The notes beneath the pieces were generated by a model, which was not told the origin of the DNA, searched no databases, and saw only the letters and a program-made list of their open reading frames with translations. Shown piece by piece: positions 17,783 to 38,929 of a DNA stretch of 64,000 nt. Position numbers and translations under genes: made by a program. The stretch is from Endomicrobiales bacterium (GTDB lineage Bacteria > Elusimicrobiota > Endomicrobiia > Endomicrobiales > CAWCFT01): positions 160,001-224,000 of the forward strand of contig CAWCFT010000001.1 of NCBI GenBank assembly GCA_963794945.1, in the 5' to 3' direction. Position 1 is the first letter of the stretch, and every line of letters begins with the position of its first letter.

Positions 17783-18232
17783 TTATATGCTGTAATCGAT
17801 AGTATCAGTAACTTGTAGCTTGCGCGACTTATCGGCTATGTCTTGGAATGTGGTTTTGTCTACTACATTGTTTACTGCATCCCTCGCCTCTTCAAAATAG
17901 CCCTTCAGCGCGCACTTCTTCTCGTAATTGCATTTGTTGTAACATGACTTGCTTACGCACGCTATTGAAGAAGTCGGGCCTTCCATGAGCCGTATTATCT
18001 CGCCCATGGTAATCTTTGAAGGCGGCTTGGAAAGGTAAACTCCGCCCTTAGGGCCTCTTACGGTCTTTACATAGCCAGCGCCCTTGAGTATGGTTATAAT
18101 CTGCTCAAGAAATTTAGTCGGGATATCCTGCCTTTTCGAAATATCCTTTATCTGGTCGATGCCCTTATCGTAGTTCAGCGCCAGGTCAAGTATTATTTTG
18201 AGCGCGTAGTCGCCTTTGAAAGTTATCTTCAT
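17783..18232 (-). CDS. Rrf2 family transcriptional regulator (CymR/IscR-like)
   Basis: FLEQI...VRGPKGG winged helix; Cys cluster ACVSKSCYNKCNYEKKC; C-terminus DYSI. Confidence 0.9.
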   Translation of the reverse strand: MKITFKGDYALKIILDLALNYDKGIDQIKDISKRQDIPTKFLEQIITILKGAGYVKTVRGPKGGVYLSKPPSKITMGEIIRLMEGPTSSIACVSKSCYNKCNYEKKCALKGYFEEARDAVNNVVDKTTFQDIADKSRKLQVTDTIDYSI

Positions 18233-18259
18233 TGTTTTTCCCTATAATGTCTATATTGA

Positions 18260-19405
18260 TTATATAATATTCTTAAGAGCTTTTTCAAGGTCTACAAGCA
18301 AATCTTTTTTATGTTCTATTCCAACAGAAAGCCGTATAAGGTTATCCTTTATACCCCTGCTAAAGCGTTCTTTTTGAGGGATCGAGGCATGGGTCATTTC
18401 TGAAGGATAGCAAACAAGAGATTCCACACCCCCAAGGCTTTCCGCCAAGGTAAATATTTTCAACCCGGCAATGAATTTCTTTGCTTCAGCCTTGCCGCCT
18501 TTTATCTCAAGGCTTACGATACCACCGTAGCCATCCATCTGGAGTTTTGCCGTTCCATGGCCTTTGTGCGATGTGAGGCCAGGATAATAAACTCTCTCAA
18601 CATTTTTGCTGCCTTCAAGGAAACGTGCGATGGAAGAAGCGTTCTTTTCATGTTCCCTCATTCTAACCGACAAGGTCTTTACTCCTCTTAGCGTCAGCCA
18701 TGAGTCCCAAGGGCCCGGCACGGCGCCTATAGCGTTTTGATAAAACTTGATATTCTGGAAGAAAGATTCATTCGAGGTTATAACCGCTCCCCCGATAACG
18801 TCGCTGTGCCCGGCGATATATTTAGTGGTGCTATGAACCACGATGTCGGCTCCCAGTTCAATCGGCCTTTGAAAATACGGGCTGGCGAATGTGTTATCTA
18901 CTGCAAGCAATATTCCATTTTTCTTGGCTGTGTTCGCGAGATTCTTTATATCAATAATTTTTAGCAATGGATTTGTGGGAGTCTCTACCCAAATAAGTTT
19001 TGTATTCTTCTTGATCGCTTTTTCAAAAGAATGACCATCATCTATGTCCGCGTAAGTTACATCCAAACCCCATTGCTTGAAAACTTTTTCGAAGAGGCGG
19101 TAAGTGCCGCCGTAAATGTCGCTGCCGGAAACAACATCGTCGCCCACTTTCAACACACTCAAAATAGCGGCCGTCGCCGCCACACCAGAAGCGAAGGCAA
19201 GCCCGTATTTCCCGTTTTCCAGAGAAGCCAAAGCCTGCTCCAGAGCCTTCCTTGTAGGATTCCCGGTTCTTGAATATTCAAAACCTTTATGCTTTCCGAC
19301 TTCTTCCTGCTCGTAAGTCGATGTCTGGTACACCGGCACGATCACGGCGCCTGTAGCCGGGTCAGGTTCCTGGCCTTCGTGTATAGCCCTTGTTTCAAAT
19401 TTCAT
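18260..19405 (-). CDS. Cystathionine gamma-lyase/gamma-synthase
   Basis: YSRTGNPTR, ETPTNP, VDNTF, HSTTKYIAGHSD, AESLGGVESL. Confidence 0.93.
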   Translation of the reverse strand: MKFETRAIHEGQEPDPATGAVIVPVYQTSTYEQEEVGKHKGFEYSRTGNPTRKALEQALASLENGKYGLAFASGVAATAAILSVLKVGDDVVSGSDIYGGTYRLFEKVFKQWGLDVTYADIDDGHSFEKAIKKNTKLIWVETPTNPLLKIIDIKNLANTAKKNGILLAVDNTFASPYFQRPIELGADIVVHSTTKYIAGHSDVIGGAVITSNESFFQNIKFYQNAIGAVPGPWDSWLTLRGVKTLSVRMREHEKNASSIARFLEGSKNVERVYYPGLTSHKGHGTAKLQMDGYGGIVSLEIKGGKAEAKKFIAGLKIFTLAESLGGVESLVCYPSEMTHASIPQKERFSRGIKDNLIRLSVGIEHKKDLLVDLEKALKNII

Positions 19406-20771
19406 AAATATGCTCCTCTTTTTGTGTTATCAGATAGTCTATTATATCGGACCTTGTAAGAATAGCTGATGGCGATCCGCTATCATTTAATACGATTATC
19501 CCGGTGTTCCCCGCGAGCAGCCTGTAGGCTTCGGAAATGTCGCTGTCATCATGAAGCTGCGGAAGCGGTTTGCCCATCACCGCCCTTATCTGTTGTTTAG
19601 AAAAATCAATTCCGTCGGAAAGATTTTTCATTACGGAAGCATCATTTAGGCTTCCGGCCAGCTTACCGCCGTCAATTACCGGAAGCTGCGAGATATTGAA
19701 ACGGTGCATAAGCTTAACCGCGCTCGCAAGCTTATCCTGGGAACTCACAGAAATTAGCGACGGCAGGTTCCTCTTGGAGGCGAATATATCCTTGAGCTTT
19801 ACCGGGCGATTCTCCCTGCCTTCCCAGAATCCGTTTTCCTGCATCCAGGGATCTGAAAATATCTTGCTTAAGTAATTCCTGCCCGTATCAGGCAGTATAG
19901 CGACTATGAACTTTGGGATATCAAGCCGTTTTGCGTATTTCACCGCGGCGGCAAAAGCTGTCCCTGCCGACCCCCCGGCAAGGATACCTTCTTCCCTGGC
20001 AAGCCTGCGGGCCGCGTTGAAGGACTCCTTATCGCTCACGCGTATCATTTCATCCACAATTTGCCTGTTAAATGTTTTTGGTATAAAATCTTCGCCTATC
20101 CCCTCAACCTTATATGATTTCGGCGAATCACCTGACAAGATAGAGCCTTCCGGGTCCGCACCCACAACAATGATGTCCGGATTTTTCTCTTTAAGATATT
20201 TCGCGGTTCCGGATATAGTACCGCCAGTTCCCATGCCTGCCACGAGCACGTCAATTTTCCGGTCAGAATCTATCCATATCTCAGGCCCTGTGGTCTGGTA
20301 GTGCGCCTGGGGGTTATTGGGGTTCTCAAATTGATTCGGCCTATAAGCCCCGGATATCTCTGTAGCGAGCCTGTTGGCCACGCCGTTATAGCTTTCAGGT
20401 GAATCCGGCGGAACCGACGTGGGCGTTATTACAACCTCGGCCCCATAGGCTTTCAAAAGATTTATCTTGTCCTGGCTCATCTTGTCGGGCATTACAAATA
20501 TGCAGCGATAGCCCTTGACCGCGGCCACCATCGCAAGCCCGACACCCGTATTGCCGGCGGTTGCCTCGACAATGGTTCCCCCGGGTTTCAGCAGTCCGAC
20601 CTTTTCCGCCGCTTCTATCATGGTAAGCCCAACCCTGTCTTTTATGCTTCCGCCCGGATTTAAGTATTCGACTTTAACATAGATCTCGGATTTAATATCT
20701 TTCGTGATATTATTTACTCTTATCAAAGGCGTCCTTCCAATCGATTCTAAAATATTGTTGTATTTTGTCAT
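19395..20771 (-). CDS. Cystathionine beta-synthase with C-terminal CBS domains
   Basis: NPGGSIKDR, TAGNTG, GMGTGGT, YKVEGIGEDF, plus a CBS pair. Confidence 0.92.
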   Translation of the reverse strand: MTKYNNILESIGRTPLIRVNNITKDIKSEIYVKVEYLNPGGSIKDRVGLTMIEAAEKVGLLKPGGTIVEATAGNTGVGLAMVAAVKGYRCIFVMPDKMSQDKINLLKAYGAEVVITPTSVPPDSPESYNGVANRLATEISGAYRPNQFENPNNPQAHYQTTGPEIWIDSDRKIDVLVAGMGTGGTISGTAKYLKEKNPDIIVVGADPEGSILSGDSPKSYKVEGIGEDFIPKTFNRQIVDEMIRVSDKESFNAARRLAREEGILAGGSAGTAFAAAVKYAKRLDIPKFIVAILPDTGRNYLSKIFSDPWMQENGFWEGRENRPVKLKDIFASKRNLPSLISVSSQDKLASAVKLMHRFNISQLPVIDGGKLAGSLNDASVMKNLSDGIDFSKQQIRAVMGKPLPQLHDDSDISEAYRLLAGNTGIIVLNDSGSPSAILTRSDIIDYLITQKEEHIYEI

Positions 20772-20784
20772 AAAACCTCCTCTT

Positions 20785-38496: not shown

Positions 38497-38597
38497 TTGT
38501 TTTTCTCCTTTTTTTAAGCTTTCAGCTATCAGATATCACTGTCAGCAAATAATTTACATCATTTTATTATTTATACTGGTTGAGCTGCTTGGTGGAT

Positions 38598-38627
38598 TCA
38601 ACATCGCATTCGTTTAAAATTATTCAT
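38598..38627 (-). other. Candidate mini-ORF MNNFKRMRC upstream of metY
   Basis: GGAGA RBS shortly upstream; ends in a Cys codon; shares ACGAATG.G.TGT with the 36146-36190 mini-ORF. Confidence 0.4.
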
Positions 38628-38644
38628 TTTCTTCTCCGTTTAAG

Positions 38645-38929
38645 TCAAATTCCCGACCCGTTCGTAAAATAACTCGACAGCTTACCAATAACTTCTTTTG
38701 CGTCCGCACCTTCCGCTTTAATGGTTAAGGAATCACCATTTGCGGCCGTCAGCATCAAAATGCTGAGTATCGAACACCCATCGGCCTCGGGGCAGTCCCC
38801 GCATGTTAAAGATACTTTTGACTTGTGTTTTTGGCATATCTGCACAACCTGCGAAGCTACCCGCAGGTGCAGGCCTTCAGGCTTGTCTATTTTAACCGTT
38901 TTTGTTTCGACTGTTGATGTATTATTCAT
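38645..38929 (-). CDS. HPr-family phosphocarrier, Cys-rich, with GSGI tail
   Basis: GLHLR (His15 equivalent), DGCSIL (Ser46 equivalent), AEGADA. Confidence 0.88.
   Translation of the reverse strand: MNNTSTVETKTVKIDKPEGLHLRVASQVVQICQKHKSKVSLTCGDCPEADGCSILSILMLTAANGDSLTIKAEGADAKEVIGKLSSYFTNGSGI

Follow-up and report, generated by a model that had tools for sequence, protein, structure and literature searches.

Introduction

Why do so many unrelated proteins encoded in a single bacterial sulfur locus end in isoleucine (Ile), and could one enzyme be reading those ends? The question is raised by a cluster of methionine and cysteine metabolism genes, approximately 21 kb long and recognized with Pfam and NCBIfam models, that lies in a 64,000-nucleotide stretch of DNA from an Endomicrobiales bacterium of the phylum Elusimicrobiota (GenBank assembly GCA_963794945.1, contig CAWCFT010000001.1, forward-strand positions 160,001 to 224,000). 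We refer to this whole stretch as the window (G000:C1:160001-224000) and number all positions within it unless a contig is named; its source genome, G000, is a 2.9-Mb bin, 86% complete with 5.9% contamination. Judged by one protein, at 89% identity, the nearest named relative of this bin is an uncultured Elusimicrobiales bin. The genes between 16054 and 38929 all lie on the minus strand. Five of their products, namely an Rrf2-family regulator, an SsuB-type ATPase, a PaaK-like acyl-CoA ligase, a small DUF2292 protein and a paralogue of the phosphocarrier HPr, carry C-terminal tails which, as judged by comparison with relatives, are conserved as short motifs on linkers of variable sequence and length. 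We argue below that these tails probably dock into CysK (O-acetylserine sulfhydrylase A), which is encoded in the same cluster.

To our knowledge, the tail partners known for CysK amount to a handful, comprising CysE, CymR, one contact-dependent inhibition toxin and EGL-9. Among CysE-type proteins the tails fall into two classes, G-x-G-I and D-[YF]-x-I, as in GDGI, DYVI and DFSI. The tails of CysE, CymR and CdiA-CT place their terminal Ile in the CysK active site (PMC5562914; bioRxiv 10.1101/2024.09.19.614015), the terminal Ile is critical, and at micromolar concentrations O-acetylserine takes the cysteine synthase complex apart (PMC5562914). Staphylococcus aureus CymR ends GYMFYI, and a decapeptide of it binds CysK with a dissociation constant (KD) of 25 nM; crystal structures are reported, and S. 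aureus CysE, which ends DDYII, binds in the same manner (bioRxiv 10.1101/2024.09.19.614015).

Terminal isoleucine in the sulfur cluster

An earlier reading of the sequence alone (hereafter the sequence-only reading) had counted 11 Ile ends among the 26 proteins from metW to HPr, and had placed cysK inside the same cluster. Both statements are borne out: 11 of 28 open reading frames (ORFs) end in Ile, the 28 becoming 26 once two frameshift-split genes, metY and the aminotransferase, are each counted once, and the tails that it quoted for the HPr paralogue, the DUF2292 protein, the PaaK-like ligase, the Rrf2 regulator, the SsuB-like ATPase and the beta subunit of a 2-oxoacid:ferredoxin oxidoreductase (OFOR) agree letter for letter. 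Compared with the genome-wide frequency, terminal Ile is far above background. Over all ORFs of 90 aa or more in the genome (n=2625), 185 end in Ile (7.05%); of the cluster's 27 ORFs of that length, 10 do so (binomial p 8e-6), or 11 of 28 when the shorter DUF2292 protein is added (p 1.5e-6), and only 2 of the 32 window ORFs outside the cluster share this ending. When a 27-gene frame is slid along the whole genome, the maximum falls on the cluster; the runner-up, a stretch at about 49-80 kb of contig G000:C8, has 8 of 27.

The enrichment is sharper still when whole motifs are considered. G-x-G-I ends occur on 2 of the 2625 ORFs genome-wide, both in the cluster, with the DUF2292 protein as a third below the 90-aa cut. 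A strict motif (G.GI or [DENQST][YF].I), counted by eye, is carried by 4 of 27 cluster ORFs vs 3 of 2598 elsewhere (Fisher p 3e-7). Of the fourteen proteins elsewhere in the genome with a looser [YFW]-x-I end, eight belong to unrelated Pfam families and six to none, and no sulfur link was seen among them. A nucleotide-level explanation by ATA codons running into stop codons was rejected, ATA accounting for 52% of all Ile codons in the genome.

Conservation of the tails among relatives

Homologs in related loci were compared if they showed at least 35% identity, aligned to within 25 residues of the end of the window protein and had no X in the tail. Of the members of the five families that passed, 59 of 89 end in Ile, vs 15 of 333 in 15 control families from the same loci, where motif matches number 0; Fisher's test gives p 3e-35, a value to be read with the knowledge that the relatives are not independent. 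Ile was found at the ends of the controls MetN (1/28), MetI (2/30), the two copies of MetQ (0/28), MetY (0/4), OFOR alpha (2/45), delta (0/42) and gamma (1/25), and MetX, MetW and the porin together (0/5). The remaining controls are proteins that themselves end in Ile in the window, namely CysK (QEQI; 0/16 homologs), the gamma-lyase (KNII; 2/19), the aminotransferase (KAKI; 3/46) and OFOR beta (DPAAWI; 4/45). The ortholog test thus upholds the tails of all five families introduced above and removes these four.

The sequence-only reading had listed the DPAAWI end of OFOR beta (26418-27356) beside the others, and this tail is not kept: the nearest relative ends WKRK. Across OFOR beta homologs (L039-L065) a conserved Trp is followed by a single variable residue (KEWI, KEWS, KEWT, KEWA and KNWV, against AAWI in the window); what is kept is the Trp and not the Ile. 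The QKKI end of the amidohydrolase was likewise excluded from the signal, a close ortholog for comparison being absent. The IYEI tail of cystathionine beta-synthase (CBS) is ambiguous, for the overlap of its codons with the start of the next gene, raised earlier as a caveat, is indeed seen, yet the tail is also kept in G119. Overall, about half of the 11 Ile ends in 26 proteins fall outside the conserved signal.

The PaaK-like ligase and the SsuB-type ATPase

The PaaK-like acyl-CoA ligase (30524-31855; Pfam AMP-binding and AMP-binding_C_2; tail NLGGGI) offers the clearest view of how such tails are built. Its 120 best homologs, drawn metagenome-wide from several phyla at 67-100% identity, include 116 that share the core end HKAKR..D.R. 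Extensions of 0-5 residues past this core end in Ile in 0 of 71 cases, those of 6-12 residues in 27 of 42, and those of 11-12 residues in 18 of 18 (27 of the 120 best homologs overall). Of these Ile-ended sequences, 26 of 27 fit G-x-[GN]-I or polar-[YFW]-x-I. Since Ile is confined to the longer extensions, the tails are appended modules. Among orthologs in species genomes (at least 55% identity) 41 of 65 end in Ile, compared with 0 of 15 paralogs at 33-37% identity, and the commonest endings are DYSI (12), DYTI (6), IYEI (4), NYTI (3) and DFSI (3). The last residue is strict: 184 PaaK-family sequences include 58 in which it is preceded by G.G or [polar][YF]x, and in all 58 it is Ile. The sequence-only reading had cautioned that the window tail might be a by-product, its codons holding a GGAGG near the next start. 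This GGAGG lies 9-13 nt before that start; a Shine-Dalgarno origin is ruled out by orthologs that carry KGAGI, RGEGI or DY[ST]I on linkers of 6-12 residues.

The ligase does not reach the PaaK equivalog models (TIGR02155, 291 bits vs a cut-off of 646; NF041878, 331 vs 700), and its context of MetQNI, an aminotransferase and OFOR suggests a methionine-derived acid as substrate; a search for usable literature on a methylthiopropionate, OFOR and ligase pathway found none.

For the SsuB-type ABC transporter ATPase (23951-24733; Pfam ABC_tran; tail LLEYTI), whose top NCBIfam model is SaoA with a score under the cut-off, 9 of 11 homologs of 260-330 aa from the same order end in [DE]-Y-x-I (DYTI, PEYVI, PEYSI and others). 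The motif is absent from 13 longer paralogs, whose ends read T-I-I, T-I-V or K-I-L. Beyond the order, 113 representatives of 230-300 aa from the 150 best matches include 12 that end in Ile, 3 with P-x-Y-x-I and 3 with G-x-G-I. Another recurrent end in this family is Y-x-[MF]-A-W (YAMAW, YNFAW and YQFAW in P0147, P0150 and P0191), and two further members end [SE]-Y-Y-L; both could be additional tail classes.

The Rrf2 regulator and the DUF2292 protein

The Rrf2-family repressor (17783-18232; Pfam Rrf2, 126 bits; tail TIDYSI) has homologs in related loci that end Y-x-I in 10 of 10 cases. It passes the Rrf2 superfamily model and falls short of the NCBIfam CymR equivalog (106.7 bits vs a cut-off of 195), and would accordingly be described as CymR-like in locus and tail, not as a CymR equivalog. 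Its tail is of an already known kind. The known CymR-CysK pair of Bacillus subtilis and S. aureus likewise involves an Rrf2-family sulfur repressor with an aromatic-x-Ile tail, here DYSI in a cysK cluster; the differences are that the window protein lies under the CymR cut-off in a distant phylum and that four more proteins, none of them such a regulator, are tailed alongside it.

The DUF2292 or OscA-like protein (61 aa, 35901-36086; tail GVGEGI) matches Pfam DUF2292 at 57.6 bits (cut-off 22) and does not reach the NCBIfam OscA model (47.4 bits vs 85). Its close orthologs end GEGI in 5 of 5 cases on differing linkers (IGV, LGA, AGD and LSA). Within the order, 7 DUF2292 genes occur in 6 of 104 genomes, and 6 of the 7 end G-x-G-I; six distant DUF2292 proteins, one of them from Nitrospira, are without the tail. 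A search for usable literature on YezD/DUF2292 and OscA found none.

The HPr paralogue

The HPr paralogue (94 aa, 38645-38929; tail YFTNGSGI) passes the HPr family model TIGR01003 (66.3 bits vs a cut-off of 47.9). Its subfamily comprises 11 metagenomic and 6 genomic members, of which 16 of 17 end F-x-x-G-x-G-I and one GAGL, down to 45% identity. Among 401 genomes of the phylum, the paralogue (>100 bits) is confined to the source genome and five genomes of the same order; the remaining HPr matches, at or below 63 bits, are housekeeping HPr, including the source genome's own copy on C19. CysK lies beside the paralogue in 5 of 6 related loci, with the order HPr-MetY-CysK in 4 of 6; the fifth locus (G205:C137) has the paralogue with cysK, Rrf2 and two DUF2292 genes and no metY between HPr and cysK, and the sixth ends at a contig edge.

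The phosphorylatable positions of HPr (His15 and Ser46 equivalents) are invariant in the paralogue alignment as H21 and S53, and the source genome encodes three enzyme I (EI) family proteins of the phosphotransferase system (PTS) and one HprK, all above cut-offs. Four invariant Cys (C32, C43, C46 and C52, including a C-x-x-C) are absent from ordinary HPr and could have to do with metal, redox or persulfide chemistry. An AlphaFold2 model (predicted local distance difference test score, pLDDT, 77) has the HPr fold with a helix at 77-90 and residues 91-94 without secondary structure, the last block having a mean pLDDT of 49. For the PaaK-like and SsuB-type proteins, the varying linkers suggest that the tails may be flexible too. 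A complex prediction of CysK with the paralogue scored 0.00, with controls not run, and is counted neither for nor against binding.

A shared motif on further proteins

The sequence-only reading had set these tails beside those of known CysK partners, and they do match both known CysK-binding classes: the five cluster proteins carry [DE]-[YF]-x-I or G-x-G-I. Moreover, the classes interchange within families. Among PaaK-like ligases there are GAGI, GEGI or GGGI tails as well as DYSI, DYTI or DFSI tails, and SsuB-type ATPases end PEYxI or LGSGI. That two classes swap on the same families, across phyla, argues for one reader.

Across the fetched related loci the motif is borne by 63 of 1491 accepted ORFs, 53 of them in the five families and ten in others. 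A CysN from a Desulfuromonadaceae bin (L015:3019-4689), which passes its equivalog cut-off, has an extension of ~110 residues ending GDDGIGI. Four NifH-family proteins (TIGR01287 passed) from Ruminococcus-type bins (L030, L052, L053 and L059) end SADDY[HN]I about 2 kb downstream of cysK genes, and would be nitrogenase-like Fe proteins that bear a CysK-type tail and are encoded among sulfur genes. A TcyN-like ATPase ends SEYYI, and three short unannotated ORFs also bear the motif. Our literature search, which left most subscription journals outside its reach, found no paper describing CysK-type tails on the HPr paralogue, DUF2292/OscA, the PaaK-like ligase, SsuB- or TcyN-type ATPases, CysN or NifH-family proteins, in keeping with the earlier statement that a network with these partners was not known.

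CysK as the putative receptor

The presumed receptor (36225-37157) passes the CysK equivalog TIGR01139 at 479.9 bits vs a cut-off of 350.95, and its closest solved relatives are the cysteine synthases 3rr2 and 2q3b (E 1e-133). CysK and CBS are the sole two matches above the cysKM cut-off in the source genome. The tails exist, are conserved and Ile-specific, and mark sulfur-related proteins. Taken together, their conservation, the strictness of the Ile and the match to a known class make docking into the cluster CysK, in competition with O-acetylserine, the best explanation, and one that we hold to be probable; the role of CysK as receptor, the displacement of the tails by O-acetylserine and the way each effect runs are inferred, the first two from the known complexes.

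Under this proposal, each tail would insert in the active-site cleft of CysK, with the carboxylate of the terminal Ile taking the place of the substrate. When sulfur is sufficient and O-acetylserine low, CysK would hold its partners, and when sulfur is scarce it would let them go. A single sensor could thereby set transcription through Rrf2, uptake through the ATPase, the methionine-linked acyl-CoA branch through the ligase, and two small regulators, of which the HPr paralogue could connect the PTS phosphorelay with sulfur status.

There is precedent for several elements of this scheme. In plants, the STAS domain of SULTR1;2 reportedly binds O-acetylserine(thiol)lyase, a case of a CysK-type enzyme regulating a sulfur transporter directly, but SULTR1;2 belongs to another transporter family, and no terminal-Ile tail is known to mediate the binding. 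The cysteine synthase complex shares with our proposal a flexible C-terminal tail, an essential terminal Ile and dissociation by O-acetylserine (PMC5562914), and differs in that CysE of the source genome lacks such a tail, which sits on other proteins instead. CdiA-CT of Escherichia coli 536 and the EGL-9/CYSL-1 pair of Caenorhabditis elegans show that unrelated proteins have gained a CysE-like Ile tail for a CysK homolog (PMC5562914). Unlike the present pattern, in which several proteins of one sulfur regulon are tailed and which recurs across phyla, those are isolated single cases, a toxin and a hydroxylase.

In a broader form of the proposal, CysK would read a widespread tail code (G-x-G-I or [DE]-[YF]-x-I) under O-acetylserine control in several phyla, with the tailed partners replacing CysE here, a possibility that we place slightly short of even. 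The partners would then include SsuB-type and TcyN-like importer ATPases, the PaaK-like ligase, CysN and the NifH-family reductase, along with two small proteins, the OscA-like DUF2292 protein and the Cys-rich HPr paralogue, that might couple PTS or redox state to sulfur assimilation. The pattern suggests that far more proteins than the partners known today learn of sulfur status through CysK. If this is true, one CysK mechanism extends to transporters, to catabolic and anabolic enzymes and to a PTS-type signalling protein; DUF2292/OscA and the HPr paralogue of sulfur loci gain a first mechanistic handle; and a simple sequence rule would predict proteins under sulfur-status control in any genome. 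The natural tails would also define what the CysK site accepts, with a bearing on the design of CysK inhibitors.

Several observations weigh against docking into CysK and must be set beside it. CysE of the source genome, frameshifted in the assembly, ends NLKK without an Ile tail, which means that the canonical complex is not evident here and that tail binding by this particular CysK is unproven. CBS, a second enzyme of the O-acetylserine sulfhydrylase (OASS) type in the cluster, is a possible alternative receptor. Nor is the tail universal in its families, being absent from 24 of the 65 PaaK orthologs and from 2 of the 11 SsuB-type homologs. Among 25 housekeeping HPr proteins of the order, 12 end G-F-G-E, 8 of them as GFGEEI, so that the G-x-G of the paralogue is partly inherited and only the stop directly after Ile is specific to it. 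An outer-membrane efflux protein (L122) ends GAGI and cannot meet CysK, making it a probable chance match. Related bins, many of them Ruminococcus or Clostridium, enter the ortholog counts and overstate their independence; the argument is accordingly carried by the variation of the linkers and the range of phyla rather than by the counts. Finally, ~250,000 windows were scanned, and a per-window p of 1e-5 is expected a few times by chance; as so large a scan could yield such a value, conservation among orthologs was taken as decisive, and not the p-value.

Alternative explanations

The alternative that survives best holds that the docking motifs are real and the receptor is something other than CysK, be it a paralogue of the CBS/MccA type, whose homologous active site binds O-acetylserine or serine, or MetY, or else a protein that recognizes C-terminal peptides, for example a PDZ-type protease or adaptor. 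CBS (19395-20771) is the sole further OASS-type enzyme in the genome, and in other phyla the PaaK module is often flanked by genes for CBS and cystathionine gamma-lyase (CGL). In 4 of 6 loci metY separates HPr from cysK, which would suit MetY as receptor, a point countered by the G205:C137 locus, where the paralogue keeps the company of cysK, Rrf2 and DUF2292 with metY absent between. Y-x-I resembles class II PDZ ligands, but PDZ-type readers accept V, L and F, and the strict Ile of the PaaK family (58/58) suits CysK better. Insertion of a C-terminal Ile is, moreover, established for CysK-type enzymes only, and we regard a different receptor as unlikely, at perhaps a third of the weight that we give to CysK itself.

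Far less credible is the idea that the small G-x-G-I proteins, the HPr paralogue and the DUF2292 protein, are sulfur-carrier precursors like HcyS or CysO, from which the last residue would be cleaved, the exposed Gly thiocarboxylated and the sulfur passed to MetY or CysK. Such a role would accord with their genes lying beside metY and cysK, with their ends of Gly-x-Gly plus one residue, as in precursor carriers that end GG plus extra residues (HcyS, QbsE), and with the presence of four invariant Cys in the HPr paralogue. However, the latter has an HPr fold rather than a beta-grasp, its G-x-G is inherited from the GFGE of ordinary HPr, the tails read G-[ASEG]-G and not GG, and neither ThiF/MoeB-type nor JAMM-type Pfam families were found among the window ORFs. 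On PaaK and SsuB proteins, furthermore, G-x-G-I swaps with DYxI, an end that cannot give rise to a thiocarboxylate.

That the tails have no common function, arising through chance and shared ancestry or as nucleotide-level by-products of Shine-Dalgarno sequences and overlapping starts, would be compatible with the size of the scan, with the GGAGG of the PaaK tail and the CBS overlap and with six of the 11 Ile ends being not conserved or ambiguous, but is highly improbable and, for the five families, appears largely refuted by tails that persist at 45-70% identity while linkers vary and gene orders differ, by DUF2292 and HPr genes that have no close next gene (gaps of 280 and 149 nt), by DY[ST]I codons unlike a Shine-Dalgarno sequence and by the motif's occurrence in 0 of 333 control proteins.

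Organization of the locus and its surroundings

In minus-strand order the cluster begins with the HPr paralogue, MetY (in two pieces), CysK, the DUF2292 protein, a porin-like protein, MetQ, MetN and MetI, followed by the PaaK-like ligase, the aminotransferase (split), the four-subunit OFOR, a second MetQ and the amidohydrolase. It continues with the SsuB-type ATPase, a ferredoxin-like protein, SsuA, SsuC and a GNAT acetyltransferase, and closes with CBS, the gamma-lyase, the Rrf2 regulator, MetX and MetW. CBS combines PALP and CBS domains and passes TIGR01137 (tail HIYEI). The GNAT acetyltransferase (20785-21324) is nearest to models of arsinothricin/phosphinothricin N-acetyltransferases, with 132 bits for ArsN1a and the cut-off of 170 not reached, and its role may be to detoxify an analogue of methionine or glutamate.

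Upstream of the HPr start, a sigma-70-like promoter of perfect consensus, read from the sequence as TTGACA-17-TATAAT at 38988-39016 on the minus strand, is directly followed by an inverted repeat, GTCTAT-N7-ATAGAC (38969-38987), the two together spanning 38969-39016. As the promoter falls inside the long ORF that begins with TTG, the ATG at 38929 gains support as the true HPr start. A related word, ATAGACAT, sits upstream of the Rrf2 gene (18233-18259), and the inverted repeat is a candidate operator of the Rrf2 repressor. Rfam found no riboswitches within the cluster; a thiamine pyrophosphate (TPP) riboswitch (66 bits, 15385-15496, minus strand) lies upstream of thiamine genes for hydroxyethylthiazole kinase and thiamine monophosphate (TMP) synthase.

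The O-acetylhomoserine sulfhydrylase MetY (37205-38496) is split into two ORFs that divide its Pfam Cys_Met_Meta_PP match (38203-38496 and 37205-38206); in relatives it is a single intact ORF of 430-432 aa. Further frameshift-split genes are the aminotransferase (29362-30519), cstA (6294-8208), an IS110 transposase (11860-12934) and cysE (G000:C3:100104-100588), and these splits may be assembly indels of the bin and not pseudogenes. At the far end of the window, a giant ORF (51479-64000, minus strand) extends past the window end and measures 6744 aa in the genome.

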